Shown here: one piece after another, positions 28,860-52,017 of the stretch
Position numbering within the stretch: position 1 is the stretch's first letter
Layout of the letters: each line of letters starts with the position of its first letter
The notes under the pieces: model-generated
Databases searched by the model: none
What the model was told of the DNA's origin: nothing
What the model saw: the letters and a program-made list of their open reading frames with translations, nothing else
Made by a program: the position numbers and the translations under genes
DNA from: Candidatus Latescibacterota bacterium
GTDB lineage: Bacteria > Latescibacterota > CBDEFO01
Assembly: GCA_965248755.1 (NCBI GenBank)
Contig: OZ252149.1
Span: forward strand, 2,112,001-2,176,000
Length of the DNA stretch: 64,000 nt
Direction: 5' to 3'

Positions 28860-28904
28860 TTGACTTTAGGACAACTTTTTTGTAACTTATACTCAAAGTT
28901 ACAA
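28860..28904 (+). promoter_or_regulatory. Putative sigma70 promoter with overlapping inverted-repeat operator
   Basis: TTGACT-17-TAACTT; perfect inverted repeat TTGTAACTT-N7-AAGTTACAA at 28880-28904. Confidence 0.55.
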
Positions 28905-28954
28905 TATGTGTGCTGTAATTTGATAACGTCGATGACTTTAGGAGGCGATTTGGT

Positions 28955-31168
28955 ATGGAAATTAAAAGAGAAATGATACTACTTCCTCTGGCTGGTTTGA
29001 TCTATCTTTCATTGTTAATCGGCGGTGTCCAGGCAAAGGAAATAATCATCCTCGGCGGAGATGAGGGGAATTCGTGGGCAGACGGCGGCGGAGGCATCAC
29101 ACCTGTCTTTATAGTGGGTCCCAAGGAAGTGGAACTCGGAAACACGCCGGGCGGAGTAATCGATTTTGATTTCGAGGACAGAACAGACTGGGTATTTCCC
29201 GAAAGATCGGATCCGACGAAAAATATCGCAATAGGGCTCATCGACAGGGGAGGTTCGATAGAAGACAACCTGTTTGACACCACCGAGGGCGATTTGATAC
29301 AAATGATAGACAACAACGCCGAAACCGCCTTTGAAAGGAAGAGTACTGAGCTAAAGATGGTCTTCACTTTTGGGGTAATAATAACATTCGATTTAGGATC
29401 GCGGTTCGGTGTGGGTAGGCTGAAGTTTTTCCCCAGAAACGCCGATCCTGACTTTGCTGCATCGGACTTTCCGTTTCAGGACGATTTTATAAGAGCATAT
29501 GAGATCTTTTTCAACGATGGCAGCGAAGAGACCCAAAGCGGTGGCAGACCGATATTTACAAGCTTCCTGCTTGAGCAGCAAAACGATCAAGCTGTGGTGG
29601 ATATGTCGATAGTCCCTCAGTATATTCGCTTTATCAGGATCAGGTCGCAGACGACCGTCGGTTTTGAAATATCGGAGTTCCAGGTCTTCGGAGTGGGGTT
29701 CGTGCCTGTTGCGGAGTATCAATCTGACATATTCGATTTAGGGGAGGGGTTAGCCCTCTGGGGGAACATACGCTGGGAGGAGGATATAATAGGCGATGCT
29801 GTCCTCTCCGGCGCTGCGATAAGGACAAGGAGCGGAATAGACGACAGCCCTGTGCTGTTCAATCGAATCAGAGACGACCTTGCAGAAGTGCCGTGGAAAA
29901 GGGAAGGAGACCTCGAGGGTTCAAGGGAAAGGGAGATAGTAGCAGAGCTCGACAGCCCCGATCTGAATGTGAGGGAGGCTATGCTTACGTTCAGCGAATT
30001 GACTCCGGAGGAGAGGAACAGTATATCTCTTACGCGGTCTGACCACACCGGCCTGTCATCAACCAAGAAGGGTTCGGTAAGGGACGACATAGAAAACTGG
30101 AGTCTTTGGACGCCGCCCTATTCTCCCGCGGGGATAGTGACATCGGGGGAGGTGGCAGCAGGGGAAGGGGGCGTCAGGATTCTCTCTCCGGGGCCACGCC
30201 GGTTCTTCCAGGTTAAGATAGACTTTTCCAACGACGAACTCTTTGCGTCAAGGGGCATCGGCGCACTATCCTTTGACTTTTCCAGCCCGCCCCTCGCAGA
30301 GGAGATATTAGCTGAAATATCCCCCCGACAGGTAGATTTAGGGGAAATTACAGAGTTTTCTTATTGGATCTTGCCCCACATACGGCCGGGATTTGACAAA
30401 GGGTTCAACTCCTTTGAGATCACGACCCCTGTCAGGGTGACATCTATTGACAAGATAGAGATGAGCTTTCCGGATGGGACAAAGGTCACTGAGGACTTTT
30501 CCGATGCAGACCTTACCAACTTGCCCGTAAGTCGTGGTAATTTTAGCATAGACCTTGTGGAGGAAGATCGCTTCGGAATCAGCTTCCCCAGGGTTGAAAA
30601 CAGCAATGTAGAGACACGGGAGATGACAACTGTAAATGTGACCTTCAAGGGCGTAGTGCTGAGAATCGGGACGGCGTTCACAGGCAGGGCGTTAAACAGC
30701 CTCACTGGAGAGCTCGAACTCCCTCAGGAGGTGATAGGGGCAAACGTGGTCGACCTGAGCCAGGAAGAACTCAATGTAGCCCATCTGCGGAACCAGGCAA
30801 ACCTTGTGGTGCAGGTCGCGATAGAGGAGGATCTTCTGATTAACGTCAAGGCAGTTCCGAATCCTTTCACGCCAAACGGGGATGGTATCAACGACTTTAC
30901 AGACATAAACTACGATATTACGAGCTTAACCAGCAAGGGGAAGGTTACGGTAGGTGTCTACGACCTTTCGGGGAGGCTCCTCAAAGAGTTATACTCGGGT
31001 CGTGACGCGAGCGGAAGTTATTCCAGTCAGAATCGTGAATCATTGAGATGGGAGGGGAGGGATAAAGATGGGAATCTACTGCCGCCGGGGATATATATCT
31101 TCAGGGTAGAGATAGATGCCGACGCAGATAACGAAGGAGCAAGCGGAACTGTAGCGGTAGTATATTAG
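28955..31168 (+). CDS. Secreted FlgD-Ig/CHU_C-tailed protein, first gene of the 29-52 kb cluster
   Basis: AGGAGG RBS; signal peptide; FDLG.RFGV..LKFFPR, EISEFQVFG and WSLWTPPY...SPGPRRFFQ; PNPFTPNGDGIND...VVY tail. Confidence 0.8.
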   Translation: MEIKREMILLPLAGLIYLSLLIGGVQAKEIIILGGDEGNSWADGGGGITPVFIVGPKEVELGNTPGGVIDFDFEDRTDWVFPERSDPTKNIAIGLIDRGGSIEDNLFDTTEGDLIQMIDNNAETAFERKSTELKMVFTFGVIITFDLGSRFGVGRLKFFPRNADPDFAASDFPFQDDFIRAYEIFFNDGSEETQSGGRPIFTSFLLEQQNDQAVVDMSIVPQYIRFIRIRSQTTVGFEISEFQVFGVGFVPVAEYQSDIFDLGEGLALWGNIRWEEDIIGDAVLSGAAIRTRSGIDDSPVLFNRIRDDLAEVPWKREGDLEGSREREIVAELDSPDLNVREAMLTFSELTPEERNSISLTRSDHTGLSSTKKGSVRDDIENWSLWTPPYSPAGIVTSGEVAAGEGGVRILSPGPRRFFQVKIDFSNDELFASRGIGALSFDFSSPPLAEEILAEISPRQVDLGEITEFSYWILPHIRPGFDKGFNSFEITTPVRVTSIDKIEMSFPDGTKVTEDFSDADLTNLPVSRGNFSIDLVEEDRFGISFPRVENSNVETREMTTVNVTFKGVVLRIGTAFTGRALNSLTGELELPQEVIGANVVDLSQEELNVAHLRNQANLVVQVAIEEDLLINVKAVPNPFTPNGDGINDFTDINYDITSLTSKGKVTVGVYDLSGRLLKELYSGRDASGSYSSQNRESLRWEGRDKDGNLLPPGIYIFRVEIDADADNEGASGTVAVVY

Positions 31169-34100: not shown

Positions 34101-36908
34101 ATGTTAAAGAGTCGCACTATATTGCCGAGTGCAATAATTTTTCTCCTTTTGCTTGCCCTCTCCTGGGAGAGCACCCTTGCCCAGCAGGACTACGGAATCC
34201 GCTTGGGACAAAGAGAGGGCGACAAGGTGGCCTTTCGACCTCAAGGGCCGGGGACACTTTTAGGAACTATAGACCCTGTGGTCAAAAAATGGTACCTTCC
34301 GCAGGAGCTATATCAGGAGTATCAGTGGCAGACGTGGGATTACACCAACTACGGCAGGGATCGCTACAAACGTTATAATGATCCTATAAATGAGGGAGAC
34401 TACTTTTACGACCTCTACGGCAATTTTATAACCAGGGGATGGCTGGTCTACAATTGGACGGAGGAGCGCCCCAGGTCATCTGACGGCAGCAGTATCCTCA
34501 AAACGGGACAGTACGGCAGCTTCTTCAGGTCGCTTGTAATAGCCCGAGACCAGAAGGGACAATATTCCTACTCTATCACCGTAGGCGACGAGATACGTAC
34601 GACCCTAACGCCGATGACGTTTAGAAAGTCCACCTTCAACGGCGCTCAGGCCGATTTTATGTCAGATAATTACTCAGCGACTGTCCTGCTGTCCAGAATC
34701 AGCGCTCCGGGCATCCCAATAGCAGGCGCGGTTACCTCCGTCACCAATGACTACACCAATCTGATAGGGGGCAGGGCAAAGGTCAATATCGGGGATTTCG
34801 TGACGGTGGGAGGGACAATCGTTAATGCCCACACCGGCAGAGGCAACCTGGAAAGCTTTACGGGCAATCCGTATAAGGGGGCCCTTACCACAGGCCAGTT
34901 GCAGGACAAGATCAACACCATAACCATCCGGCTGAGCGACGCCTCTCCAGCGGACAACACAGGAGGTGCCGTCCTACTTTCTGACGACGTGGAGATAACG
35001 ACCAAGATCGGAGAGAGGGACACAGTTCTATCTGGAAACGCAGTAGGCTTCAGGCCCAACATGGAAGGCGGCATCCTGAAAGAAGGAGCTATAGTGGCAG
35101 ATGGAACCGAAACGATAACACTAAGGTACGACCTGTCCGATTTGGTGGAAATAGTGGGCGATGTAGACGTCGTAAACAGCATCGAAAAGGTCAGATTCAG
35201 ATTCACTCTGGCAAATGACTACAAAGTGGAGATGACATCTGACCGACAGACAAATAGGGAGGGACAGCCGATCTTCGTTCTGGTGACGCAGGCCAAGGGA
35301 AACGTAAAGGACGCCTCAAACAAGAAGGAGGTCGGCTTCGACTACGGTTTTCCCACAGCCAACCAGGTCTATGGCTTCACCCTGGAAGTAAAGGACCTTA
35401 TGGGATTTAATCTCTACACCGAGTTCGACATAAACCACCGTTTCAGGCAATATCCCAACCTCCGTCTGGAGACGCACGATGCCTCCTCAGGGATCATCGG
35501 CGATGAGGCGTCCGAAGCGTGGATGATGAACCTGTCGAAGATCTCTTATCCGTGGCACTTCTTCGCAGAGGGCTTCTATATGGACGACAACTACAACACG
35601 AGCCCCTTCATTGTGGATCAGTTTGGCAGAATAGACTACGAGGACGAAACCAGGAGCATCTACGACTTTGTGGACGACAACGATGACCAGGACCAGAAGC
35701 CCGACCAAGAAAGAAGGTTCCAGGACTACAGGACCTCGTCTGAAAGAGGGACTGAAGGAAGCACTTTGGATGGGGCTGCTGATGACGCGGTCTTCCCCGG
35801 ATGGGACGAAAACAACGACTTTATATCCGACTTCAATCAAAACAGCACCCCATTCCGGGAAAATACGATTCCCGACTACGATGAGCCGTTCCTGAGATAC
35901 GGTGTAGACCGCCCTGAATTCCTCTTTGGGATGGACCTGAATAATAACGGATGGATAGACAGATTTGAAAACGACAACGAACCCGACTATCCCTACAAAA
36001 AGGATCGAAAGGGATACAACATCTACCTTGGAAGCCACATAACGCCAGAGATGATTCTGACGGTGGGACAGGAGCGCGAATTTCTCATATCTGACGACAG
36101 AAAAAACCTGACCACGTACGCGCTTTTCACATTCGAAAGGGAATACGCAAAGATCGGTAGATTACGGTTTTTCGATATGGTCAAGAAGGTCAAAGACAAC
36201 ATCCAGGACGATCTCTTTCAGTGGATACAGCCCCCTGGATCGGTCGGGGTGAATCAATTCGTACCAGACCCGCTGTCGGCTCAGGATACCTGGATAAATA
36301 CGGCCTGGTTCGGCTTTGACCGTTCGACCGACTGGGGAATAAACCTTGTCAACAAGTTCAAATACGAAATATTGGACCAGCGCCAAGACGAAAGCATCAC
36401 GGGGTTCAAGGAGAACACACGACTTTTGGGCATCGTCAACAAGGTCGATTATATCCAAAAGATCGGTAACATGAAGATCCGTCCGAAGTTCAAAAGCGCA
36501 CTTTTAAAGGATAACACTCCTTACTCCCTCGGTAGGGCAGAGCGAGACGAATGGTCGGGCATATTCTCCCTGGTTTTCGAGTTTCCGGCCTTCAGGAAAA
36601 CTAACATCGAAATAGGACTCGAACAGCTCTTTTCCCAGGATATGCTCCTCGATGAGACGTTAAAAGTCGTGGATGATGCCGGGAATGTTATTAAAGGGAA
36701 TTTCGAGGCGCGTCAGCCCACGGGAGATTTCTTCGGTACTGTGTTGGCGGCGCAGTTGACCAATATCGGGGACTATGTAGGCTACCGGCTGATCACCCAG
36801 CTCGGCATTAGAGTCGACAGAAAATCCCTTGAGAGATTTGAAGAGGACAGAAAATCACAGACCGATAGTTTCGTCTTTGTGACAGTGTACGCTGGTGTTC
36901 AAGAATAG
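34101..36908 (+). CDS. Large secreted protein, putative outer-membrane beta-barrel (paralog 2)
   Basis: GAGGAG RBS then ATG 34101; full-length paralog of 31238 (DPVVKKWY.PQELYQEYQW, GD.IRTTLTP.TF, FDYG.PTANQ.YG); ends FVTVYAGVQE. Confidence 0.6.
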   Translation: MLKSRTILPSAIIFLLLLALSWESTLAQQDYGIRLGQREGDKVAFRPQGPGTLLGTIDPVVKKWYLPQELYQEYQWQTWDYTNYGRDRYKRYNDPINEGDYFYDLYGNFITRGWLVYNWTEERPRSSDGSSILKTGQYGSFFRSLVIARDQKGQYSYSITVGDEIRTTLTPMTFRKSTFNGAQADFMSDNYSATVLLSRISAPGIPIAGAVTSVTNDYTNLIGGRAKVNIGDFVTVGGTIVNAHTGRGNLESFTGNPYKGALTTGQLQDKINTITIRLSDASPADNTGGAVLLSDDVEITTKIGERDTVLSGNAVGFRPNMEGGILKEGAIVADGTETITLRYDLSDLVEIVGDVDVVNSIEKVRFRFTLANDYKVEMTSDRQTNREGQPIFVLVTQAKGNVKDASNKKEVGFDYGFPTANQVYGFTLEVKDLMGFNLYTEFDINHRFRQYPNLRLETHDASSGIIGDEASEAWMMNLSKISYPWHFFAEGFYMDDNYNTSPFIVDQFGRIDYEDETRSIYDFVDDNDDQDQKPDQERRFQDYRTSSERGTEGSTLDGAADDAVFPGWDENNDFISDFNQNSTPFRENTIPDYDEPFLRYGVDRPEFLFGMDLNNNGWIDRFENDNEPDYPYKKDRKGYNIYLGSHITPEMILTVGQEREFLISDDRKNLTTYALFTFEREYAKIGRLRFFDMVKKVKDNIQDDLFQWIQPPGSVGVNQFVPDPLSAQDTWINTAWFGFDRSTDWGINLVNKFKYEILDQRQDESITGFKENTRLLGIVNKVDYIQKIGNMKIRPKFKSALLKDNTPYSLGRAERDEWSGIFSLVFEFPAFRKTNIEIGLEQLFSQDMLLDETLKVVDDAGNVIKGNFEARQPTGDFFGTVLAAQLTNIGDYVGYRLITQLGIRVDRKSLERFEEDRKSQTDSFVFVTVYAGVQE

Positions 36909-37115: not shown

Positions 37116-38798
37116 GTGAACAATATCGCTGCTGTTGTAAAAAAAGCTACAAGAATTCGTGTGTTCCCGATCGCCTTTTTGGTTATCTGTATGAGTTGCG
37201 CGAAGCAAAAGGGGGATTTAGTAGTAGCCCAGGTTGGAGATAAGACGATAACTTTAAAGCAGTTTCAGGAATTTTATGATAAACTCCCCGAATATTACCA
37301 TAGCCAAAAAACAGGAATGGAAGGAGAAAGGAATCATCTGCAAACTATGATTGATATGAAGCTCTTGACGATGGAGTCCCCCAAGGTGGGCATCGATAAG
37401 AGCCTCGCCTTTCTAAGGAAGATGAATAAGGCCAAAAAGGAAAAGCTTGTAGGTATCTTTCAACGAAGGGAAATAAAGATAGATGTAAAAGAAGAGGAGA
37501 TACAGGAGTTCTTTGAAAAGCATGGATTCTCCAGGGGGATCAGGTTCAGCGATATTACGGTTGACAGTGAGGACAAAGTAAAGCTCGCTTTTGAGGAGAT
37601 CAAAAAGGGGAAAAGCTTTGAGGATGTTGCCAGGAAGTGGTCTACGAATAAAGAGACTGCTCCAAGAGGGGGCGATACAGAAAGGTACAGTGTCAAAGAA
37701 AGTATAACGCTGATTCAGGACAAGCTATATTCTCTCAAGGTGGGCGAAGTATCAGAGCCCGTAAAGATTGGCAGCGGATATTCGATCTTCAAAGTTGTTG
37801 CTGATACTACAATGGCCCTTGGCCCGGAGCTGAGAGCAAAGATTTCCAAATCACTCTATGTAAAGAAGTTTAGTCTCGAAAGAGCCGCTTTAGTAGACAA
37901 GCTCAAGAATAAATATCACCTCGAACTGGATCAGGGTGGTTTGAACGCCTTTGTTGACAGCTTGCGCAACGGTGCATCTTTTGAAACGGAGGATGAGCGG
38001 AATATCGTCGTTTACAGATACGACAGGGGAAAGATAACAGCAGGAGACTTTATCTACGTGATCAGCGATCTAAAAAGTAAAGGTGGTCCCACTAATTTTA
38101 CAGATAGCCGACAGGCGGTCTCCTTTGCAGAGCGTGCCGTAATTCCCTACATAATGATTATGGAAGCTGCTATTCGCGGTGGAATAGATAAGGAGGAAGA
38201 TATAGCAAAATGGCTTGAGACAAAAAGAAGGAAGTTTTTAATATGGGGACTCAGGAAAAGAGCGCTGGAAGGGAAGGTAAACATAACTGAGGAAGAGATA
38301 CGACGGGAGTACGACAGCAATCCGGATAATTATATGCGCCCTGAGCACATACATATACAGGAGATACTTGTAGAGACAGAGGAAGAGGCGCTGCGCCTTA
38401 AGGAGCAGATCCGAGAGGGCGCCCTATTGGGCCAGCTTGCAGGGATTCATTCTATACGGCCTATAAAAGAACGAGATGAAGAAGGAAGCATGTATTTTCA
38501 TGCCGATCCCATCCACCGCTATAAATACGGCGACTTAGTGGAAGCTGCACAGGAAGCGCAGATAGAGGTGCTCAAAGGTCCTGTTAAGGTAAAGGGTGGC
38601 TATTCTATATTCAAGGTGCTATCCAGAAAGCATGAGAGACGGCCCTTTTCAGATGCCAAGAGGCTTGTTAGAAAGCATATAAAGAAAGTGAGGGAGGCGG
38701 AGATATTTGAGCAGTTTCTGAAAGTACTGCGAAATAAATACGCATCACAGGTGAATATCCTAGAAGATAACCTTAAAGTAGCCTTCAAAACCGAGTAG
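37116..38798 (+). CDS. Parvulin-type peptidyl-prolyl isomerase/chaperone lipoprotein with two rotamase domains (PrsA/SurA-like)
   Basis: Lipobox-like CMSC; VVAQVGDKTIT; GKSFEDVARKWS...RGGD...GEVSEPVK.GSGYSIFKV; second domain HIQEILVETEEEA...GPVKVKGGYSIFKV. Confidence 0.85.
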   Translation: MNNIAAVVKKATRIRVFPIAFLVICMSCAKQKGDLVVAQVGDKTITLKQFQEFYDKLPEYYHSQKTGMEGERNHLQTMIDMKLLTMESPKVGIDKSLAFLRKMNKAKKEKLVGIFQRREIKIDVKEEEIQEFFEKHGFSRGIRFSDITVDSEDKVKLAFEEIKKGKSFEDVARKWSTNKETAPRGGDTERYSVKESITLIQDKLYSLKVGEVSEPVKIGSGYSIFKVVADTTMALGPELRAKISKSLYVKKFSLERAALVDKLKNKYHLELDQGGLNAFVDSLRNGASFETEDERNIVVYRYDRGKITAGDFIYVISDLKSKGGPTNFTDSRQAVSFAERAVIPYIMIMEAAIRGGIDKEEDIAKWLETKRRKFLIWGLRKRALEGKVNITEEEIRREYDSNPDNYMRPEHIHIQEILVETEEEALRLKEQIREGALLGQLAGIHSIRPIKERDEEGSMYFHADPIHRYKYGDLVEAAQEAQIEVLKGPVKVKGGYSIFKVLSRKHERRPFSDAKRLVRKHIKKVREAEIFEQFLKVLRNKYASQVNILEDNLKVAFKTE

Positions 38799-40575: not shown

Positions 40576-43161
40576 TTGATGCCCGGATTCTTTATGAAAG
40601 GTCTTAGAATCATGAATTGGACTTGGGGGACTTGCGCAGTGGTTCGTGTGGCAGTCTCAGTAATTTTGTTTTTCCCTTTTTATGTCGAGGCTCAAAAAGG
40701 GCATAGAATCATCGAAAACAGGATTCAAATCAACCAGAGATCTCAATGGGAGGTGTGGGATATTGAAGGAGGCAACACAAATATTTCGCAGGATGGCTCG
40801 GTAAGTCCCAGCTTTATACATAAAAACATCAATGCCGCCTTGGATGCAGAGGAGTTCTCCTTAACTGATGAAGGGGGCATAACTGCCGGTTCGAACCAGC
40901 AGGATGCGCGTAATTTGATGGATGGAGATATGAGCACAACCTGGGGTCCCGAGAGGAACAGCCCCTTTGAGGATTGGTGGGTGACTTTGAGTTTAGGACG
41001 GTTAGTTGTCGCTTCAAAGATAGTGTTGCGCTTCGCCGAGGAAGGCGAGGGGGATCCCTTTTTGCAGTTTAAGGTTTTAGTCTGGAGACACCCCCCTGCA
41101 ACGGTCAAAGCTGACGACCACCCGTTTTATCAAAGTTATCTGCTTCCGCTAACCAATACGCCGAGATTCTGGGAGATCGGCAGGAGTATCAAACCCAACA
41201 AGACTCAGAGGGTCTTTGAGTTTGTCCCTCCATCAACGCAATCTACAGATGACGTTTTTACAGGAGATCCTATTGAGTATGTTCAGATAATCGCTACAGA
41301 CAGCGATTTTGACAAGGCACAGGAGGTATCGAAAGAGGATTACGATGTCCTTCCGGACGATAAGAAAGGGGCTGTGGAATACTTTAGAAGGAGCATATCT
41401 GGCAGGGAGACCCTGATCTCGGAAGAAGAATACGAGGCGATCCATCCCAGCCGGCAGGGCCCCATAAGGTACTACAGGAGGGAGATACCCAGATTAGCCG
41501 AAATCGAGGTCTGGACCCCCGGGGATAATATCAACCTCGGCATAACAGAGCGCGGCGGGAAGTTGACTATTGAGATCAAGGGCGGCGTTAGGGATGCCGG
41601 TTCCGTTGTTACAGACGGCGATTATGGAACGTCGCTTAACGGGACGATAAGTTCGTTTTACACCTATACTTTCCTTCAGGATTTGGGGGCGCTCTTTTGG
41701 ATCGAGAAAATGCAGGTTCTAAACGACGGATCATCCAGCATAGCTAAGATCTTTCTGGATATATCTGACGGGACGAGGGCGCCCGACGGCAGCATCAAGT
41801 GGACGAGGGTGGGAAGCAGTACACAGAAATCAGCATACGCCGAGATGAAGTTTGATCCTGCTAAAGTCAGATTTATCAGGGTACCGTACGAGCATGAACA
41901 GCAGGTCGGGGGGCTGGCTTACATATCATGGACAGACGTGATGCTTTACGGTGAAGGATACCTTCCGGAGGTGGTGATGACTTCGGACCTTATAGAGTTG
42001 GGCGGCAGGAAGAATCTCATTTCCATAGAATGGGAGGCGGACACTCCCCCTGGCACAAGCGTCCGGTTGCAGACGAGGACGGGCAACGAATTGGATGAGG
42101 AGAAGATATTTCACGACTCAAAGGGCAAAGTTATTACAGAGAAGAGATACAACAAACTTCCCAAAAGCAGGCGGGGTGAAATAACGAGCATATTTAAGCC
42201 GGGCGGCGATTGGAGCACCTGGAGCGCTCCCTACCGTTTTCAAGGTGAGGACATAAAGTCTCCAAGTCCCAGAGAGTTTATGCTTATAAGGGCAAGGATT
42301 CTGTCGGATAGTCCCGATATTGCCGCATCTTTGCGCTCCATCGAGGTGAATATGTCCGATCCGATCGCGGACAGGATGATCGGAGAGGTGTGGCCCAACA
42401 GGATCGTGACCTTAGGCAGACCTGAGGATTTCTCATTATTCATTCGTCCTTCTTTCAGCACGGCATTACAGAGATTTGATGAGATTATGATAGAAGCCAC
42501 TGCCGGAAGCCAGATGGAACTCCTCCGGGTGCGTACAGGCAGCGATGAGGATTTTCAAAACGGTGAGATTAGAGGTTTTTCACCTTCAGAGTTGACAACG
42601 TTCGAATCACAGCCCGACACACTCTGGTTTCGCCTGCCTGATCCTGTCAGGAGGGGAGTGGACCTTGTTGAGGTTCAGTTCCGTTCGAGGATCTTTTCAA
42701 ACAGCGAATCGTTCAAGGCATCGGGCCAAAGCTCTAACTCCCCCGGTTTTTGGCAGAGGGTAGATGCTGGAGATGCTACGGATTTGGTAAACAGCCAGAG
42801 GACAATTGTCCTTGCTTTGGGGGGAAATGAGATTATACAAGATTTGATTATTGATCCTGAGACGATTACTCCCAACGGAGATGGGGTAAACGATGAGATG
42901 ACGTTTAGCTTCAGCGTTACAGGCGTAATAACAGCTAAGGAAGTGAAAGTTACGATATACGATCTCGGCGGTGTTGTAGTCAAGGTGTTGTCAGAGCACA
43001 GATCTGATCCGAGGGGGGCCTATTCAATTGTCTGGACAGGAGATGACCGATCGGGCAACATAGTTTCTCCCGGGATGTATCTTTCCAGGGTCGAAGTAGA
43101 TGTCGATTCCGGTTCTGCAGAGGATACTTCTGCTGATCGGTTGGTCTCTGTGGCCTATTGA
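40576..43161 (+). CDS. Secreted FlgD-Ig/CHU_C-tailed protein with two discoidin-like domains
   Basis: Signal peptide (start may be 40579 or 40612); LMDGDMSTTW...LSLGRLV and a second VTDGD...DLGALFWI; WSTWSAPY...SPSPR; ITPNGDGVND...VAY tail. Confidence 0.78.
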   Translation: MMPGFFMKGLRIMNWTWGTCAVVRVAVSVILFFPFYVEAQKGHRIIENRIQINQRSQWEVWDIEGGNTNISQDGSVSPSFIHKNINAALDAEEFSLTDEGGITAGSNQQDARNLMDGDMSTTWGPERNSPFEDWWVTLSLGRLVVASKIVLRFAEEGEGDPFLQFKVLVWRHPPATVKADDHPFYQSYLLPLTNTPRFWEIGRSIKPNKTQRVFEFVPPSTQSTDDVFTGDPIEYVQIIATDSDFDKAQEVSKEDYDVLPDDKKGAVEYFRRSISGRETLISEEEYEAIHPSRQGPIRYYRREIPRLAEIEVWTPGDNINLGITERGGKLTIEIKGGVRDAGSVVTDGDYGTSLNGTISSFYTYTFLQDLGALFWIEKMQVLNDGSSSIAKIFLDISDGTRAPDGSIKWTRVGSSTQKSAYAEMKFDPAKVRFIRVPYEHEQQVGGLAYISWTDVMLYGEGYLPEVVMTSDLIELGGRKNLISIEWEADTPPGTSVRLQTRTGNELDEEKIFHDSKGKVITEKRYNKLPKSRRGEITSIFKPGGDWSTWSAPYRFQGEDIKSPSPREFMLIRARILSDSPDIAASLRSIEVNMSDPIADRMIGEVWPNRIVTLGRPEDFSLFIRPSFSTALQRFDEIMIEATAGSQMELLRVRTGSDEDFQNGEIRGFSPSELTTFESQPDTLWFRLPDPVRRGVDLVEVQFRSRIFSNSESFKASGQSSNSPGFWQRVDAGDATDLVNSQRTIVLALGGNEIIQDLIIDPETITPNGDGVNDEMTFSFSVTGVITAKEVKVTIYDLGGVVVKVLSEHRSDPRGAYSIVWTGDDRSGNIVSPGMYLSRVEVDVDSGSAEDTSADRLVSVAY

Positions 43162-43197: not shown

Positions 43198-45147
43198 ATG
43201 AGAAATGTTAGATTGGGGTTATGCTTGTGGGTCCTTATCCTGGCGGTTGTGCTGACATATAAGGATTCATCAGGACTTATCATCTACAGATTCGGCGGCC
43301 AGGCACTCCCTCCTCCTTCTGATGCGGAAAGTGAGGGTGTAGAATTTATTCAGAAAAGCTGGTCGGATTTGAACAGTTCACAGGGAGGAGAGACCTTTCA
43401 GCTCGTTATGGAGGACAATTCGATTAAGGCTTTTGAATTAGATCCTCAGGAGAATATAGCCCCAACGATTGAAGAAAGAGGAGGACGTAGAGAGTATGGA
43501 GCAGTTGACTACGTTGATGTGTTTGACGGGGATTTGACCACAGTGCACACTCTTCCCAGATACCTCTGTGCGGAGAAAGCCCTTAAAACCCGGCAGAGCT
43601 GCCTCTTACCTCCGTATGACACTGAAGGTCTAATCCAGATATCTCTCAACGGTCTATTTCTCATTGACAGGATCAGGATAATATCAGGACTCCTTGATCC
43701 GGACAAAGTTGTGCAGAGGGTTCGCGTCTACACTACCAACCTTCTCGTCGGACATAGAGGTGTCTATCATGAAATGGAAGATTGGATACAACCGAGTGAT
43801 GCGGTCCATGGTTCGGCTCACATAGACAATTCTATATACTCCGTGCTTGAGGTTAAGGACAACATGAAGCAGTACCTGGATATAGAGCCGGCCCCTATAA
43901 GGACTACCTTCATCCAGTTGACGGTGGCTGAACACAATGTAGAGTGGGAAATTGCAGAAGTAGAGGTCTATGCGAAGGGTTTTCTTGAAGAATCTTCATA
44001 TGTATCCGACAGGATAGACTTTGGGATCCCAGCAGCCTGGGGCGATATTAGATGGTCCGGAAGTAGAGACCCGGGCGCAAAAGTCTTGATACAGACAAGG
44101 AGCGGAGCGGACGACGATCCCACTATGTACTGGAAGAACACAGGGCGCGGGGGTGAGAAGAAGGAAGTGACCAGGTCTCGATATAACAGGCTCAATTTCG
44201 GCGAGAAGGCAGGAACGACCCATGATAGGGACAACTGGACGCTCTGGTCTCAACCTTACGATTTTGCCGACAGTTTAGGCACATCCGTTGTCTCTTTGAG
44301 TCCCCGTCGCTTCGTTCAGTTTAAGGTCGACTTCTTTCCACTGGGAGAGGCGGGTGGCGGACTGGACTTTTTGGAGTTTCGCGCCTCTGTCCCTCCTTCG
44401 GCCTCCAAGTTGGTGGGTGAGATTTCTCCTGTCCGGGTGGAAGTGGGGAAGGTATCACGTTTCACCTACGCTGTGAAGCCGACCATAGAGGGGGACGATA
44501 GAGGATTCGACAGTTTGGAGATGACCACAGCTTCTACGATTATGTCTGTCAATTCGGTGAGGATAGACGATGTTGATGTTCCGTTTGAGGTGGAGGCTTT
44601 AGAGGAGAATGAATTCGAGGTCAGTATCCCCAGAATAGGGAGGGAGGATTCAGGGGCGTTGATTGAGGTGGTATTCGATGCTAAGGTTTTAAGATATGGT
44701 TCTTCCTTCAATGCTCGTGTCTTCGACAGCAGCAGGCCTTGGGAGGTCCATCAGGGGGTCGGCGCTGGAGATGCAAAGGCCGAGTTCGAGGAGAACAGCG
44801 TATCTGTTATAACATCGGTTGAAGATAAGTCAGTACTTGAGGTGAGCGTTTCGCCTGAGACGTTCACACCGAATGGAGATGGGATAAACGACGTTGCCAT
44901 CATATCTTATGATATCTTTGAGATTACAGTTTCGGTCTTTGTGACAGTTGAGATACGAGATTTGTCAGGTAATTCTCTTCGGAAGGTATATTCAGGGGAT
45001 GATCCGATCGGTCATCACGAGCGGGAGTGGGATGGGAGGGACGATTCAGGGGAGATAGTCCCTCCTGGTGTCTACGTATATCAAGTTTCTATGGAGGCTG
45101 ATAAAGGAAACGACGATAAAGCCGGAACTGTCGACGTAGCTTATTAA
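43198..45147 (+). CDS. Secreted FlgD-Ig/CHU_C-tailed protein (pair B, copy 1)
   Basis: AGGAGG RBS then ATG 43198; signal peptide; FDGDLTT, WEIAEVEVY and WTLWSQPY; FTPNGDGIND...VAY tail. Confidence 0.8.
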   Translation: MRNVRLGLCLWVLILAVVLTYKDSSGLIIYRFGGQALPPPSDAESEGVEFIQKSWSDLNSSQGGETFQLVMEDNSIKAFELDPQENIAPTIEERGGRREYGAVDYVDVFDGDLTTVHTLPRYLCAEKALKTRQSCLLPPYDTEGLIQISLNGLFLIDRIRIISGLLDPDKVVQRVRVYTTNLLVGHRGVYHEMEDWIQPSDAVHGSAHIDNSIYSVLEVKDNMKQYLDIEPAPIRTTFIQLTVAEHNVEWEIAEVEVYAKGFLEESSYVSDRIDFGIPAAWGDIRWSGSRDPGAKVLIQTRSGADDDPTMYWKNTGRGGEKKEVTRSRYNRLNFGEKAGTTHDRDNWTLWSQPYDFADSLGTSVVSLSPRRFVQFKVDFFPLGEAGGGLDFLEFRASVPPSASKLVGEISPVRVEVGKVSRFTYAVKPTIEGDDRGFDSLEMTTASTIMSVNSVRIDDVDVPFEVEALEENEFEVSIPRIGREDSGALIEVVFDAKVLRYGSSFNARVFDSSRPWEVHQGVGAGDAKAEFEENSVSVITSVEDKSVLEVSVSPETFTPNGDGINDVAIISYDIFEITVSVFVTVEIRDLSGNSLRKVYSGDDPIGHHEREWDGRDDSGEIVPPGVYVYQVSMEADKGNDDKAGTVDVAY

Positions 45148-45205: not shown

Positions 45206-45546
45206 TTGGAAACTTCGACATATGGAAGGACTTCATCCGACGCAGTAGAAACTAAAACTTCAGGTATTACGTTCAGGTCTATTTTTATCAGAGCGCTCTT
45301 ATCACTGTTTATAGGCATCGCTGTTCCCTATTCCAGTATGATCATTAAGGGAACGCGGGTTGCTCATAATTTCAGCACTCCTGCCGCCCTGTTTGTCTTC
45401 TTCATCTTCGTTGCGATCATCAACGTGATTTTAGGCGCCCTGAGAAGGAGCTTCGCCCTCACCCGCGCAGAGTTAGCTACAGTCTATATTATTTGGTAAT
45501 AGACTTTTTCACAGGCATGACGGGAAATGGTGTCGGATATTTCTAA
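45206..45546 (+). pseudogene. DUF6785-like transporter gene with an internal deletion of about 1.6 kb
   Basis: The first ~95 codons match 47728 and are joined at about 45492 directly to the last ~55 bp of the gene (ttggtaatagactttttcacagg...ggatatttctaa). Confidence 0.85.
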
Positions 45547-45681: not shown

Positions 45682-45710
45682 TCCTTCGGTACGCGGTATT
45701 GGGGAGGATA

Positions 45711-47669
45711 TTGAAAATTAGAAATAGCAGATTGGGGTTATGCTTGTGGGTCCTTATGCTAGCGATTGTGCTGACATATCAGGATTCATCAGGACTTATC
45801 ATCTACAGATTCGGCGGCCAGGCACTCCCTCCTCCTTCGGAGGTGGAAAGTGAGGGTGTAGAATTTATTCAGAAAAGCTGGTCGGATTTGAACAGTTCAC
45901 AGGGAGGAGAGACCTTTCAGCTGGATATGGAGGACAATTCGATTAAGGCTTTTGAGTTAGATCCTCAGGAGAATATAGCCCCAACGGCTGAAGAAAGAGG
46001 AGGACGCAGAGAGTATGGAGCAGTTGACTTCGTTGATGCGTTTGACGGGAATTTGACCACAGTGTACTCTGCTCCCACATATAGCTGTGCGGAGGTTTTC
46101 CATACTAGACGAGGGCAGACGTGCGAACACGATCATTATGACGAGCTTGGTTTGGTCCAGATATCTCTCGGCGGTCTATTTCTCATTGACAGGATCAGGA
46201 TAATATCAGGATTCGTTAATCCGGACGGCGTTGTGCAGAGGCTTCGCGTCTACATCACCAACCTTCTCCCCGGACATAGAGGTGTCTGGGTTGAAGGGGA
46301 AGATTGGATACAACCGGCCAATAGACCGGATCAGATGGACAATTCTATATTCTCCGTGCTTGAGATTAAGGACAACAAGGAGCAGTTCCTGGAGATAAAG
46401 GTGGCGCCTATAAGGACTACCTTCATCCAGTTTGTGGTGGCAGAACACGATGTATTGTGGGAAATTGCAGATATAGAGGTCTATGCGAAGGGTTTTCTTG
46501 AAGAATCTTCATATGTATCCGACAGGATAGACTTTGGGAGCCCAGCAGCCTGGGGCGATATTAGATGGTCCGGAAGTAGAGACCCGGGAGCAAAAGTCTT
46601 TATACAGACAAGGAGCGGAGCGGACGACGATCCCAATATCTACTGGGAGGAGACAGGGCGCGCGGGTGAGAAGAAGGAAGTGGACAGGTCTCGATATAAC
46701 AGGCTCAAGTTCAGCGAGAAGGCAGGAACGACCCATGACAGGGACAACTGGACGTTCTGGTCTCAACCTTACGATTTTGCCGACAGTTTAGGCACATCCG
46801 TTGTCTCTTTGAGTCCCCGTCGCTTCGTTCAGTTTAAGGTCGACTTCTTTCCACTGGGAGAGGCGGGTGGCGGACTCGACTTCTTGGAGTTTCGCGCCTC
46901 TGTCCCTCCTTCGGCCTCCAAGTTGGTGGGTGAGATTTCTCCTGTCCGGGTGGAAGTGGGGAAGGTATCACGTTTCACCTACGCTGTGAAGCCGACCATA
47001 GAGGGGGACGATAGAGGATTTAACAGTTTGGAGATGACCACATCTTCTACGATTATGTCTGTCAATTCGGTGAGGATAGACGATGTTGATGTTCCGCCTG
47101 ACGATTTCGAGGTGGAGGCTTTAGAGGAGAATCGGTTCGAGGTCAGTTTCCCAAGAATAGATAGGGAGGATTCAGGGGCGTTGATTGAGGTGGTATTCGA
47201 TGCTAAGGTTTTAAGATATGGTTCTTCCTTCAACGCTCGTGTCTTCGACAGCAGCAAGCCTTTGGAGGTCCATCAGGGGGTCAGCGCTGGAGATGCAAAG
47301 GCCGAGTTTGAGGAGAACAGCGTATCTGTTATAACATCGGTTGAAGATAAGTCAGTACTTGAGGTGAGCGTTTCGCCTGAGACGTTCACACCGAATGGAG
47401 ATGGGATAAACGACGTTTCCATCATATCTTATGATATCTTTGAGATTACAGTTTCGGTCTTTGTGACAGTTGAGATACGAGATTTGTCAGGTAATTCTCT
47501 TCGGAAGGTATATTCGGGGGATGATCCGATCGGTCATCACGAGCGAGAGTGGGATGGGAGGGACGATTCAGGGGAGATAGTACCTCCTGGTGTCTACGTA
47601 TATCAAGTTTCTATGGAGGCTGATAAAGGAAACGACGATAAAGCCGGAACTGTCGACGTAGCTTATTAA
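45711..47669 (+). CDS. Secreted FlgD-Ig/CHU_C-tailed protein (pair B, copy 2)
   Basis: GGAGG RBS then TTG 45711 (the homologous ATG reads ATT here); near-identical to 43198 outside the head domain. Confidence 0.8.
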   Translation: MKIRNSRLGLCLWVLMLAIVLTYQDSSGLIIYRFGGQALPPPSEVESEGVEFIQKSWSDLNSSQGGETFQLDMEDNSIKAFELDPQENIAPTAEERGGRREYGAVDFVDAFDGNLTTVYSAPTYSCAEVFHTRRGQTCEHDHYDELGLVQISLGGLFLIDRIRIISGFVNPDGVVQRLRVYITNLLPGHRGVWVEGEDWIQPANRPDQMDNSIFSVLEIKDNKEQFLEIKVAPIRTTFIQFVVAEHDVLWEIADIEVYAKGFLEESSYVSDRIDFGSPAAWGDIRWSGSRDPGAKVFIQTRSGADDDPNIYWEETGRAGEKKEVDRSRYNRLKFSEKAGTTHDRDNWTFWSQPYDFADSLGTSVVSLSPRRFVQFKVDFFPLGEAGGGLDFLEFRASVPPSASKLVGEISPVRVEVGKVSRFTYAVKPTIEGDDRGFNSLEMTTSSTIMSVNSVRIDDVDVPPDDFEVEALEENRFEVSFPRIDREDSGALIEVVFDAKVLRYGSSFNARVFDSSKPLEVHQGVSAGDAKAEFEENSVSVITSVEDKSVLEVSVSPETFTPNGDGINDVSIISYDIFEITVSVFVTVEIRDLSGNSLRKVYSGDDPIGHHEREWDGRDDSGEIVPPGVYVYQVSMEADKGNDDKAGTVDVAY

Positions 47670-47727: not shown

Positions 47728-49704
47728 TTGGAAACTTCGACATATAGAAGAACTTCATCCGACGCAGTAGAAACTAAAACTTCAGGTATTACGTTCAGGT
47801 CCGTTTTTATCGGAGCGCTCTTATCACTGTTTATAGGCATCGCTGTTCCCTATTCCAGTATGATCATTAAGGGAACGCGCCTTGCTCATAATTTCAGCAC
47901 TCCCGCCGCCCTGTTTGTCTTCTTCATCTTCGTTGCGATCATCAACGTGATTTTAGGCGCCCTGAGAAGGAGCTTTGCCCTCAGCCGTCCAGAGTTAGCC
48001 ACAGTCTATATTATGGCGATGATCGCAACAGCAATACCCACCATCGGATTTTCCGAATACGTCCTGCCTATCATCATTGGCGTTTACTATTTCGCAACAC
48101 CTGAGAACGACTGGGCAAACCTTATTCATCCCAACGTGCCAGAGTGGATAACACCCAAGGATCCGGATGCAATAAGGTATTTCTATGAGGGCCTCCCCCA
48201 AGGCCAGTCTGTGCCCTGGAAAGAATGGTTTGAGCCGATATTTTACTGGTGTCTGTTCATAGTCACCCTCTATTTTGTGATGATATGCATGATGATAATT
48301 ATGAGGAAGCAGTGGATGGAGAGAGAGAGGTTGCTCTATCCGTTGGTTCAGGTCCCCCTGGAGATGATACGGGACGATGAGAGGGGCTCCCTTATCAAAC
48401 CTCTCTTCAAGAATCCGGTTATGTGGATCGGTTTTGCCATTCCCTTCTTAATAGGAAATGTGAATGCGTTTCACAATTACTTCCCTTTCATCCCGAGTAT
48501 TGAAATGGGCACTAGTCTGGCACTCTTCAGGAATACTACATGGCTCTCCTTCAATATGAACATACCGCTGATCGGTTTTGCGTATCTTTTGAATCGCGAC
48601 ATTGCATTAGGATTTTGGCTCTTTTTTCTTCTGTCGATAGTAGAAAGGGGTACATTCAGCATTATAGGCTTTCAGAGCACGGAGAATTTAAGCAGGTTTG
48701 CGAATCTCGCTGGCCCTTACCTTGCGCATCAGGCGATGGGAGCTATGATAGTATTGGTGTTGTCAGGGCTATGGGTAGCCAGAGGACACCTTAGAGATGT
48801 GTTCAGGAAGGCCTTCAGGGGAGACCCGGATGTAGATGATTCGGGGGAAGTGCTATCTTATCGAACAGCCGTTTATGGGCTTTTGATTGGGCTTTTTCTT
48901 ATGAGCATCTGGCTCTGGAAGTCAGGTTTCCCCATCTGGATCGTGCCCATATTCTTATTTGCAGTCTTTGTTATATTTACGGCCCTAACCAGAGCGGTGA
49001 TAGAGGGAGGTGCATCCATCCTGAGGACGCCTATAACGCCTTCAGACTTCGTCGTTTCTGGAATAGGGAGCAGTGTCCTGGGGTCATCCGGACTGGTAGC
49101 TTTAGCATTTACGTATGTTTGGAGCGCCAATATTCGCATCTTCTTTATGCCCTGTTTCGCCAATGCGCTGAAATTAGCAGAGGAGATAAAGGGGAGTAAG
49201 AGACCTTTAATTTGGGCGGTGGCAGTAGCTATAGCGGTCACCATAGCAGGGTCTGTATGGGTGATTATGGATATGTCCTATAAGCACGGCGGGATCAATC
49301 TTGACTCCTTCTATTTCATTGCTGTTCCTCGAAATGCATTTAGATATATAGCCCCTAAATTGGCCAATCCTGTCGCGGCGAACATAGGAGGATGGATATT
49401 TACGGCTATAGGTGCTCTTCTAATGGGTCTTTTGACGTTTGCCAGGTATCGGTTTTTGTGGTGGCCTGTACACCCCTTGGGATTTGCCACCAGCACGTTC
49501 TATATTATGAATGTGGCCTGGTTTCCTGTCTTTTTAGCGTGGATATTTAAGACGATAATTCTCAAATATGGTGGATCGCTGTTGTATAGAAGGACGAGGC
49601 CGTTTTTCCTGGGATTGATTTTGGGGGCGGTATTTGTTGCGGGGATGTGGTTGGTAATAGACTTTTTCACAGGGAAGACCGAAAATGGTGTCGGATATTT
49701 TTAA
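47728..49704 (+). CDS. DUF6785/DUF6784-like polytopic inner-membrane protein (putative transporter)
   Basis: Many TM segments; ELATVY.M, YFATPENDW, RKQWMERERLLYPLVQVP, WWPVHPLGF and KYGG.LLYR...PFFLGLILG motifs. Confidence 0.75.
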   Translation: METSTYRRTSSDAVETKTSGITFRSVFIGALLSLFIGIAVPYSSMIIKGTRLAHNFSTPAALFVFFIFVAIINVILGALRRSFALSRPELATVYIMAMIATAIPTIGFSEYVLPIIIGVYYFATPENDWANLIHPNVPEWITPKDPDAIRYFYEGLPQGQSVPWKEWFEPIFYWCLFIVTLYFVMICMMIIMRKQWMERERLLYPLVQVPLEMIRDDERGSLIKPLFKNPVMWIGFAIPFLIGNVNAFHNYFPFIPSIEMGTSLALFRNTTWLSFNMNIPLIGFAYLLNRDIALGFWLFFLLSIVERGTFSIIGFQSTENLSRFANLAGPYLAHQAMGAMIVLVLSGLWVARGHLRDVFRKAFRGDPDVDDSGEVLSYRTAVYGLLIGLFLMSIWLWKSGFPIWIVPIFLFAVFVIFTALTRAVIEGGASILRTPITPSDFVVSGIGSSVLGSSGLVALAFTYVWSANIRIFFMPCFANALKLAEEIKGSKRPLIWAVAVAIAVTIAGSVWVIMDMSYKHGGINLDSFYFIAVPRNAFRYIAPKLANPVAANIGGWIFTAIGALLMGLLTFARYRFLWWPVHPLGFATSTFYIMNVAWFPVFLAWIFKTIILKYGGSLLYRRTRPFFLGLILGAVFVAGMWLVIDFFTGKTENGVGYF

Positions 49705-49998
49705 GGGGCTAGTCTGTATACGATAGGGGGGCGGTGGGGCCCCTCCAAATCTACAAAGGCCCGCACAGGTATAAATCTTTCTCAAACCTGTGGGTTTTGA
49801 ACACCGCATTGTCTGAAGCATTCTCATCGTAACTCTTGCTGACATGGGGTTACGCTTTCCACGACGGCCTGTTTGTCGATCTTCCCCACTGGATCGATCT
49901 CTTCCTGCTGGCACTCAGAGCGAGCTATTTCCCCGAACAACAAGCCACAGCCGTGATGACTCTGTCTGGTAAATCCGGGAGCTTTCTGCCTCGCGTTT

Positions 49999-52017
49999 TT
50001 GTATGATACGATTCACCCTACTTCAGGATCCACCTTTTTTGAAATGATCTCAACACAAAGACAGACTCTATCCGACCCAGTAAAAGATGAGTCATCAAGT
50101 ATTACATTCAGGTCCGTTTTTATCGGAGCGCTCTTATCACTGTTTATAGGCATCGCTGTTCCCTATTCCAGTATGATCATTAAGGGGACGCGCGTTGCTC
50201 ATAATTTCAGCGCTCCTGCCGCCCTCTTTGTCTTCTTCATCTTCGTTGCGATCATCAACGTGATCTTAGGCGTCCTGAGAAGGAGCTTTGCCCTCAGCCG
50301 CCCAGAGTTAGCCACAGTCTATATTATGGCGATGATCGCAACAGCTATACCCACCGTTGGATTTTCCCAATACGTCCTGCCTATCATCATTGGCCTTTAC
50401 TATTTTGCCACACCTGAGAACGACTGGGTAAACCTTATTCATCCCAGCGTGCCAGAGTGGATAACACCCAAGGATTCGGATGCAATAAGGTATTTCTATG
50501 AGGGCCTCCCCCAAGGCCAGTCTGTGCCCTGGGACGAGTGGTTTGAGCCGATATTTTACTGGTGTCTGTTTGTTGTCACCCTCTATTTTGTGATGATATG
50601 TACGATGATAATCTTGAGGAAGCAGTGGATGGAAAAAGAGCGGTTTCTCTATCCTCTGGTTCAGGTGCCTTTGGAGATGATACAGGATGATGAGAGACAC
50701 TCCCTTATCAAACCTTTCTTTAGGAATCCGGTTATGTGGATAGGTTTTGCCATTCCCTTCTTAATAGGAAATGTCAATGCCCTTCACAACTACTTCCCTT
50801 TCATCCCGCATATTGAAATAGGCACTGGTCTGTCGCTGTTCAGGAATACTATAGGGCTCTCCTTCTATGTGAACTTACCGCTTGTCGGATTTGCGTATCT
50901 TTTAAGCCGCGACATTGCATTAGGATTCTGGCTCTTTTATCTTCTGACGACAGTACAAAGGGGCATGTTTAATATTATTGGCTTTCAGAGCACAGAGAAG
51001 TTGAGCAGGTTTGCGGAGTTGGTGGGTCCTTACCTTGCGCATCAGACGATGGGAGCTATGATAGTATTGGTGTTGTCAGGGCTATGGGTAGGCAGAGGAC
51101 ACCTTAGAGATGTGTTCAGGAAGGCCTTCAGGGGAGACCCGGATGTAGATGATTCAGGGGAGGTGCTATCTTATCGAACAGCAGTTATCGGGCTTATGAT
51201 CGGGCTTTTTCTTATGAGCATCTGGCTCTGGAAGTCGGGTTTTCCCCTCTGGATCGTGCCCATATTCCTATTTGCAGTCTTTGTTATATTTACAGCCGTA
51301 ACCAGAGCGGTGATAGAGGGAGGTGCATCGTTCATCAGGACGCCCATAATTCCCTCAGACTTCGTCGTTTCTGGATTGGGAACGAGTGTTTTGGGATCGT
51401 CCGGGCTGGTAGCTTTAGCCTTTACGTATGTTTGGAGCGCCAATATTCGCATGTTCTTTATGCCCTGTTTTGCTAATGCGCTGAAATTAGCAGAGGAGAT
51501 AAAGGGGAATAAAAGACCTCTGATATGGGCGGTGGCAGTAGCTATAGCGGTTACCTTAGCAGGGTCTATATGGGAGATTATGAATATATCTTACAAGCAT
51601 GGCGCGATCAATCTTGACAGCTTCTATTTCATTGCTGTTCCCCGAAATGCTTTTAGCTATATAGCCCCTCTTTTCGCCGGCCCTGTTGCGGCGAATATAG
51701 GAGGATGGATATTTACGGCTATAGGCGCTCTTCTGATGGGTCTTTTCACGTTTGCCAGGTATCGTTTTTTGTGGTGGCCTGTACACCCTCTGGGATTTGC
51801 CACAAGCACGTTCTATACTATGAGTGTGGCCTGGTTTCCTGTGTTTTTAGCTTGGCTATTTAAGACGATAATTCTCAAGTATGGTGGATCGCTGTTGTAT
51901 AGAAGGACGAGGCCCTTTTTCCTGGGATTGATTTTGGGGGCGGTATTTGTTGCGGGCATGTGGTTAGTAATAGACTTTTTCACAGGGATGACCGACAATG
52001 GTATCGGATATTTCTAA
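49999..52017 (+). CDS. DUF6785/DUF6784-like polytopic inner-membrane protein (tandem paralog)
   Basis: Highly similar to 47728-49704. The start is uncertain (ATG 50044 is possible). Confidence 0.75.
   Translation: MYDTIHPTSGSTFFEMISTQRQTLSDPVKDESSSITFRSVFIGALLSLFIGIAVPYSSMIIKGTRVAHNFSAPAALFVFFIFVAIINVILGVLRRSFALSRPELATVYIMAMIATAIPTVGFSQYVLPIIIGLYYFATPENDWVNLIHPSVPEWITPKDSDAIRYFYEGLPQGQSVPWDEWFEPIFYWCLFVVTLYFVMICTMIILRKQWMEKERFLYPLVQVPLEMIQDDERHSLIKPFFRNPVMWIGFAIPFLIGNVNALHNYFPFIPHIEIGTGLSLFRNTIGLSFYVNLPLVGFAYLLSRDIALGFWLFYLLTTVQRGMFNIIGFQSTEKLSRFAELVGPYLAHQTMGAMIVLVLSGLWVGRGHLRDVFRKAFRGDPDVDDSGEVLSYRTAVIGLMIGLFLMSIWLWKSGFPLWIVPIFLFAVFVIFTAVTRAVIEGGASFIRTPIIPSDFVVSGLGTSVLGSSGLVALAFTYVWSANIRMFFMPCFANALKLAEEIKGNKRPLIWAVAVAIAVTLAGSIWEIMNISYKHGAINLDSFYFIAVPRNAFSYIAPLFAGPVAANIGGWIFTAIGALLMGLFTFARYRFLWWPVHPLGFATSTFYTMSVAWFPVFLAWLFKTIILKYGGSLLYRRTRPFFLGLILGAVFVAGMWLVIDFFTGMTDNGIGYF

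Follow-up and report, generated by a model that had tools for sequence, protein, structure and literature searches.

ExbB/ExbD motors act on TonB-dependent receptors, the Tol-Pal system and the gliding machinery. The gene cluster described here spans positions 28,860 to 52,017 of a 64,000-nucleotide stretch, hereafter the window, from Candidatus Latescibacterota bacterium (GCA_965248755.1, contig OZ252149.1, positions 2,112,001 to 2,176,000), and encodes tailed surface proteins, two very large paralogs, a foldase and DUF6785 membrane proteins. Its closest described counterparts differ in kind. The SusCD utilisome of Bacteroidota, with its TonB-ExbB-ExbD motor, shares with it a large outer-membrane β-barrel, surface binders, multiple copies per genome, ExbB/ExbD and a membrane-anchored arm (bioRxiv 10.1101/2022.08.15.503959, accessible sections). 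Type-B cargo of type IX secretion systems (T9SS), with its PorP/SprF shuttle, shares the FTPNGDG-type tail (CHU_C), a barrel gene directly downstream and SprA in the genome (PMC12618676, in the part available). Motor-driven force transducers with von Willebrand factor A (vWA) domains as heads share a tetratricopeptide repeat (TPR) protein, a tolQ-like gene, paired tolR-like genes, a His-bearing helix, a linker and a non-TonB head (PMC12204202, accessible text). The solved barrels MtrB (6r2q), SlpA (7zgx), LptD, the FimD usher and SprA are the top Foldseek matches of the large protein, the shared trait being a large β-barrel.

Judged from its sequence, the cluster represents a single cassette of a Latescibacterota gene set that is conserved and occurs in multiple copies. 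Relatives of its barrels have a proton-motor gene set next to them, and for this reason the cluster likely belongs to a separately evolved system that catches and imports complex nutrients. The preferred reading, at roughly even odds (about 0.5), is that the barrels import glycans or other large nutrients, powered by ExbB/ExbD and a TonB-like DUF4159 arm, in the manner of SusCD and unrelated to it. A preliminary description, made from the DNA letters, had proposed a non-SusCD analogue of a utilisation locus, which is also the reading favored here; it had missed the ExbB-ExbD-DUF4159-TPR motor that tracks the barrel.

Large barrels and the motor row

The two large tandem genes, 31238 and 34101 (genes are named by their first position in the window), encode products ending in YAGVQQ and YAGVQE that match no Pfam or NCBIfam family. 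A full-library search retrieved 748 relatives at E <= 0.001, and the named ones come mostly from Candidatus Latescibacterota, with some metagenome-assembled genomes labelled Gemmatimonadetes. The AlphaFold2 (AF2) model of the 31238 product, built from 148 aligned sequences (predicted local distance difference test, pLDDT, 89.9; predicted template modelling score, pTM, 0.87), contains 23 long strands between residues 140 and 927 as read from its DSSP assignment, and the protein is probably a 24-stranded outer-membrane β-barrel. The predicted fold, a barrel rather than a soluble protein, supports the outer-membrane placement proposed earlier for the paralogs. Counting strands back from the C-terminus, all short turns of the model fall on one side, which would put the 24th strand near residues 105-118, a β-sandwich insert (243-428) and an Asp/Asn-rich insert (507-631) outside the cell, and residues 25-108 in the periplasm or the lumen. 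In the conservation profile, the Asp/Asn-rich insert is the most conserved segment of the barrel. The N-terminal segment 25-108 is also conserved, with residues 61-108 scoring like the first strands (0.55 vs 0.54), and pLDDT is below 50 over most of residues 19-90.

Fold searches with the model returned outer-membrane barrels as top matches, none of them close (TM-score <= 0.24, Z <= 13.1), although a search that lists no close family does not exclude one; the barrel profile found nothing below E 0.048 among solved sequences. A DUF6029 identity, raised by an Atlas lead (0.89), was not confirmed: PF19494 was unmatched on barrels in three genomes and hhalign gave a probability of 0.2 against one member. 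A FastTree phylogeny built from 101 barrels places the leading and the following members of tandem pairs in clades of their own (support 0.936 and 0.998). The window's two barrels are therefore old, distinct subunits, and the tree suggests that position-1 and position-2 barrels form a mixed oligomer. Rows of three barrels give supports of 0.986, 0.826 and 0.529 for the successive positions, and solo barrels mostly group with the weakly supported third.

The neighborhood of the barrel is strongly conserved, in support of the preliminary description. The best 80 of 268 GTDB stretches with a barrel relative were drawn from related genomes, and their loci are thus not independent. In 73 of these 80, the gene immediately upstream of the barrel encodes a tailed protein; the other seven have another gene upstream (three), a contig edge (three) or no barrel called as an open reading frame (ORF; one). 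Recurrent partners are the secreted protein with a TWGxIK tail (TWG protein, 62 loci), the foldase (57), DUF6785 (33) and an FG-GAP/ASPIC protein (31). Two further cassettes are found in the host genome (4.54 Mb, a single contig, C1), at C1:235-245 kb and C1:1461-1478 kb.

In distant families the barrels stand in a longer row, in the order tailed gene, ∼300-residue barrel, one to three big barrels, ∼1,100-residue TPR protein, ExbB, one or two ExbD and a DUF4159 protein. ExbB and ExbD were identified by both Pfam and NCBIfam. The small barrel is of the PorV family, with a score below the curated cut-off and a weak PorP match, and in 8 of 45 distant regions it separates the tailed gene from the big barrel. 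The DUF4159 arm begins with a membrane helix, bearing a His in six of seven aligned members, followed by a Pro/Lys-rich linker, the layout of motor-driven transducers (PMC12204202, accessible text); the main text of that paper, as available, has no occurrence of DUF4159 or Latescibacter. No TonB_C domain was detected on the arm: two arms in the Pfam scan gave DUF4159 only, and NCBIfam gave no match for this genome's arm. The link between ExbB/ExbD motor and barrel is genetic, a big barrel being present in 17 of 20 TPR-centred regions, among them L112, with a barrel from the window's side of the tree; two of the other three are short contigs. In this genome the row lies at C1:2733362-2742010, ∼560 kb beyond the window; within it the small barrel occupies C1:2734397-2735338, the giant TPR protein C1:2735381-2738599 and the DUF4159 protein C1:2739849-2741021. 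What the window contributes is this split of barrel-lectin cassette and motor row within one closed contig.

Across 121 genomes of the phylum (>= 85% complete), the barrel is present in 69 and the membrane-anchored DUF4159 arm in the same 69. The giant TPR protein accompanies it in 66 of the 69 and occurs in none of the 52 barrel-negative genomes. The stalk of the tailed proteins was matched in 59 genomes, all barrel-positive, and more distant tailed genes stand beside barrels in three stalk-negative genomes (G003, G006 and G014).

Gene content of the cassette and its surroundings

All genes named in the preliminary description are present where it had placed them, co-oriented on the plus strand over about 23 kb:

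28955..31168, plus strand: tailed surface protein S1, leading the cassette; signal peptide, CBM32/discoidin head (residues 86-248), stalk, immunoglobulin-like (Ig) domain and Tyr-ending T9SS-like C-terminal domain (CTD); CHU_C 32.6 bits
31238..34030, plus strand: predicted giant outer-membrane barrel, position-1 subfamily (AF2 model, pLDDT 89.9, pTM 0.87; conservation profile)
34101..36908, plus strand: predicted giant outer-membrane barrel, position-2 subfamily; 47% identity with 31238 (BLAST), in its own clade and not folded separately; ATG 34101 is a start codon with a ribosome-binding site
37116..38798, plus strand: PrsA/SurA-like foldase with two parvulin domains (Pfam Rotamase_2 in two stretches), likely a lipoprotein (lipobox-like Cys28)
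39026..39054, plus strand: promoter-like site TTGACA-17-TATTAT, near-consensus sigma-70 (11 of 12 positions), with a ∼260-nt leader before the TWG gene
39315..40268, plus strand: CBM9-like secreted protein with C-terminal TWGxIK tail, here TWGRIK (family profile)
40297..40321, plus strand: terminator-like hairpin 3' of the TWG gene, 11-bp stem followed by a T run
40576..43161, plus strand: tailed surface protein S2, long type, with F5/8-type-C domain (Pfam F5_F8_type_C, E 6e-5; FlgD_ig)
43198..45147, plus strand: tailed surface protein S0, variable type, first tandem copy; 85% identical to 45699
45206..45546, plus strand: internally deleted DUF6785 remnant, first ∼96 codons fused to last ∼17 (blastn, three-frame translation)
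45699..47669, plus strand: tailed surface protein S0, variable type, second tandem copy (Pfam, blastn, head/tail identity profile)
47728..49704, plus strand: DUF6785/DUF6784 inner-membrane protein, accessory (Pfam, E 1.6e-135)
49999..52017, plus strand: second intact DUF6785/DUF6784 protein, 88% identical to 47728 (Pfam)
4769..6910, plus strand: detached tailed surface protein, variable type (Pfam, BLAST); 94% identical copy at C1:3522484 in the same genome
7110..9242, plus strand: tandem duplicate of the 4769 protein, 81% identical overall, head 64-80%

The inventory of the preliminary description thus held in its particulars: both ends of the large paralogs, the two-parvulin protein, likely a lipoprotein, two intact and one deleted DUF6785-like gene (the deletion is real), and four tailed proteins with two more at 4.8-9.2 kb. 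All six of the latter match CHU_C and FlgD_ig at the C-terminus, five with a CHU_C score above cut-off, and end in VVY or VAY. In the AF2 model of the 28955 product (pLDDT 93.8), the head adopts a CBM32/discoidin fold (Z 15.1, root-mean-square deviation, rmsd, 2.0 over 123 aligned residues) and the tail resembles the PorU CTD in fold (Z 11.8, rmsd 2.6 for 100). Matches to TIGR04131 are weak in the five tails scanned (17-28 bits, cut-off 35). The genome encodes 92 CTD-like ORFs, of which 13 end in Tyr and 72 in Lys/Arg, and the family stalk is found in 13/13 of the former and 0/72 of the latter. A complex prediction pairing barrel residues 36-930 with the 28955 tail (633-737) scored 0.00 with its controls not folded, and counts neither way.

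The related loci hold 63 S1 genes (63 loci), 56 S2 genes (52 loci) and 100 S0 genes (65 loci), the last often duplicated. The "single-copy" status earlier given to core tailed proteins thus stands for the 28955 type within each cassette and fails for the genome, where paralogs occur elsewhere. The proposal that duplicated tailed proteins are specificity subunits gains from the frequent duplication of the 43198 type and from recent paralogs differing most in the head: the pair 43198/45699 is 58-82% identical in the head region and 85-100% over the last 300 residues. Its tandem duplication (43042-45492 vs 45578-48014, 91% DNA identity) is recent and includes both S0 genes and the deleted DUF6785 copy. 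Loci elsewhere (L095, L096, L099, L101, L111, L118 and L120) hold a second family associated with the barrel, of ∼600-660 residues, whose members have a FlgD-like domain at the N-terminus and end in a type-A tail; it was not found in this genome.

Presence of DUF6785 does not track the barrel, which excludes it as a core part, a further new result. It occurs in 111 of the 121 genomes, including all 52 without the barrel, and is missing from 10 of the 69 barrel-positive ones, the ten genomes of family f6; the earlier assignment of the inner-membrane step of the machine to DUF6785 is accordingly abandoned. With 45-88 copies in each genome, chance would place it in ∼17-25% of loci; it lies in 33 of the 80 related ones, which are not independent. 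For the 47728 protein, an Atlas lead to the OPT family (0.77) is a lead alone, and no solved structure was matched. A second TPR-ExbB-ExbD row was seen in this genome directly 3' of two DUF6785 genes (C1:1375252-1387896, L106).

The TWG protein appears CBM9-like, on a weak family match: its profile matches PDB 7nwn, named beta-xylanase (215-residue chain, E 1.1e-4), and two of 11 members hit CBM9_1 (E 0.019). At C1:2989397-2994320 there are five TWG-tailed CBM9-like paralogs in tandem. ORFs ending in a TWGxIK-type tail number 21 in this genome, and this tail is possibly a further sorting signal.

The 23-kb region is probably not one operon and comprises several transcription units, as the promoter-like site and the hairpin bracket the TWG gene; total counts of promoter-like sites in the region are no higher than in shuffles. 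TTGAC occurs at a matching distance (-281 to -289) ahead of four of five TWG genes inspected in this genome. The ∼260-nt leaders of TWG genes (window 39054-39315; L108, L109) carry a conserved AAAGGAGGTGG motif, repeated in three of five aligned. The Rfam scan of the window returned a tRNA alone and no match for the TWG leader, which perhaps acts as a regulatory leader or represents a short upstream ORF.

Around the cassette, tRNA-Phe(GAA) lies at 2126-2201, after nuoN. A GC-richer block (9525-27896, mostly 55-64%) encodes four paralogous secreted proteins of ∼710-820 residues with no Pfam match, a GHL10 protein, an unmatched protein of 521 residues and a GH123-like/HEAT protein, and may be a glycan-degradation island adjoining the cassette. 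On the minus strand at 52505-56257 is a three-gene molybdoenzyme of the xanthine/CO-dehydrogenase family with a twin-arginine translocation signal, unrelated to the cassette.

Import and its alternatives

Under the import reading, SprA would carry the tailed proteins across the outer membrane, shuttled by the PorV-family barrel encoded in the motor row; since SprA occurs in 120 of the 121 genomes, a route for their export is available. The tailed proteins would sit on the big barrels as lids or to capture substrate, with their variable heads setting specificity. Position-1 and position-2 barrels would act as the mixed oligomer, the arm and the giant TPR protein would pull on the conserved N-terminal barrel segment and thereby open the channel, the parvulin lipoprotein would aid folding, and DUF6785 would be one of several possible inner-membrane importers. 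The way the barrels have multiplied suits receptors more than it suits a translocon or an anchor paired one to one with its tail: one genome (G046) holds 65 barrel matches, fragments among them, against two stalk matches (19 of 29 candidates scored). Among 27 sampled barrel regions of this genome, one has a tailed gene, eight the family with FlgD-like domain and type-A tail (one a fragment at a region edge), and 18 neither. Also in favor of import, many of 84 genes flanking G046 barrels are catabolic, encoding sulfatases, BNR proteins, a rhamnosidase, oxidoreductases or PhyH enzymes.

Several observations weigh against import. Transport, ligand and binding roles are predictions from sequence and models. 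No plug or TonB box was identified in the barrel, where residues 19-90 have low pLDDT, and the CBM32 fold of the head is no proof of sugar binding, as the non-lectin DOC, IFT25 and SUN domains score within 1-3 Z units of CBM32. The catabolic genes beside G046 barrels come from loci at the top of the match list, without a background control. Ordinary TonB-dependent receptors are kept, with 3-26 matches in five of five genomes. The co-occurrence of barrel and motor comes close to a single phylogenetic contrast with few independent events, since the split follows families (nine positive, four negative), and the profiles for arm and TPR derive from genomes that have the barrel; as a control for this bias, generic DUF4159 was recovered in 12/12 barrel-negative genomes, mostly as ORFs of 220-320 residues, with one 399-residue frame in G007. 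With all candidates scored, the giant TPR protein was not found in the barrel-bearing genomes G002 (same genus, 96% complete), G026 and G112. Finally, none of the 80 loci closest to the window barrel has a motor gene or small PorV-family barrel within 10 kb, so the motor link for this barrel subfamily rests on co-occurrence and a few loci.

The strongest alternative, which we consider unlikely, is a parallel machine for protein export or display, in which Tyr-tailed cargo, shuttled by the PorV-family barrel, would leave through the big barrel as a second translocon, parvulin and TPR would be counterparts of the SprA-bound peptidyl-prolyl isomerase and SprE, and ExbBD-DUF4159 would replace GldLM. 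The order tailed gene, PorV-family barrel, big barrel(s), TPR, ExbB, ExbD recurs in distant families, the stalk marks an exclusive tail class (Tyr-ending vs Lys/Arg-ending CTDs, as counted above), and the barrel is present in every genome with a stalk match. The preliminary description had seen no T9SS core gene; this holds for the window, but SprA, PorV and PorU are present elsewhere in the genome. The sprA gene lies within C1:4143504-4151664, followed 3' by two genes that we take to be PilM/PilN-like. GldM and GldN were unmatched in this genome, in line with this alternative, though with weak controls, positive in no Bacteroidota genome; GldK and GldL were not searched. The genome G014 combines a tailed gene, small barrel, three big barrels and motor with no SprA match, which speaks for export, but is an assembly of 60 contigs (96% complete). 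Against this reading, 65 copies would be superfluous for a translocon with two cargo matches, 18 of the 27 sampled G046 loci hold neither partner family, and the barrel profile does not resemble that of SprA (hhalign probability 3.6, 26 columns, 10 SprA sequences; no PF14349 match).

A role of the big barrel purely as cognate tail shuttle or anchor, like SprF/PorP for type-B cargo and without transport, was the variant favored by the preliminary description and now appears highly improbable. The part of it that holds is the prediction of outer-membrane barrels; the placement of a tailed gene directly upstream (73/80), as for type-B cargo and SprF (PMC12618676, in the part available), and the weak TIGR04131 matches speak for it as well. 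However, a PorV-family barrel interposed in 8/45 distant loci is the better shuttle candidate, barrels far outnumber tailed genes in some genomes (18/27 G046 loci have no tailed partner), which makes a one-to-one anchor unlikely, and an anchor alone leaves the motor link unexplained. Very doubtful, too, is a device for adhesion or surface motility that the motor would drive as in Agl-Glt, the lectin heads being adhesins and the barrels their outer-membrane platform. The set has parts of the kinds that make up Agl-Glt (ExbB, paired ExbD, TonB-like arm, TPR, several barrels, surface lectins), but dozens of solo barrels scattered among enzyme genes are more in keeping with receptors than with one motility machine.

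If import is correct, a non-homologous barrel family with up to ∼65 matches per genome would be a new class of ExbBD motor target, and could explain by what means Latescibacterota, described as polysaccharide degraders (PMC4454575, in the part available), take hold of polymers on the cell surface. With its tails, the set further provides a class that can be tested on a type IX pore seemingly without its usual motor. Tentatively, the parts may form a separately evolved class of energised outer-membrane importer, made of mixed oligomers from a new family of ∼24-stranded barrels, which an ExbBD motor would open by way of the DUF4159 arm and the giant TPR protein and which lectins would cap. These caps would be delivered by the motor-less type IX pore using their own Tyr-ending tail and a PorV-like shuttle, and in cassettes with three barrels, two of the subunits would be shared and the third drawn from dozens of exchangeable ones. 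The literature searched, with most subscription journals and supplements outside its scope, contains no description of a barrel-lectin-motor system.

Comparison with known systems

Against the solved large barrels, the low scores (TM-score <= 0.24, Z <= 13.1) come with rmsd mostly near or above 10 Å, marking them as generic barrel matches. The outer-membrane usher of the chaperone-usher pathway has 24 strands and a plug formed by a periplasmic loop; its strand number may agree with that of the barrel, whereas the sandwich insert of the latter would lie outside by parity, the FimD TM-score is 0.19 and no usher Pfam family was matched. Unlike type-B cargo, the window tails end in Tyr and fall below the TIGR04131 cut-off, the downstream gene encodes a 930-residue barrel instead of a ∼300-residue PorP/SprF, and GldM/GldN are unmatched (weak controls). 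No PorP/SprF-like gene directly follows a tailed gene in the window or the 80 close loci; in 8 of 45 distant loci this place is taken by the PorV-family barrel with its weak PorP match. Compared with the vWA-headed transducers, the head here is DUF4159 and a candidate outer-membrane target is encoded alongside.

The closest functional parallel is SusCD. The barrel of a TonB-dependent transporter has 22 strands; the cassette barrel model has 23 long strands and probably 24 in all, and neither barrel matches the TonB-dependent receptor families PF00593 and PF07715, the three PF00593 matches of this genome lying elsewhere. The partners are CTD-tailed CBM32 proteins, not SusD lipoproteins (no match to the SusD family among 30 window proteins), the arm ends in DUF4159, not TonB_C, and the set adds a 1,100-residue TPR protein and a PorV-family barrel. 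Thus, while the absence of a receptor profile match, of SusD and of TonB_C sets the system apart from SusCD by sequence, it likely works like SusCD with its Ton motor.

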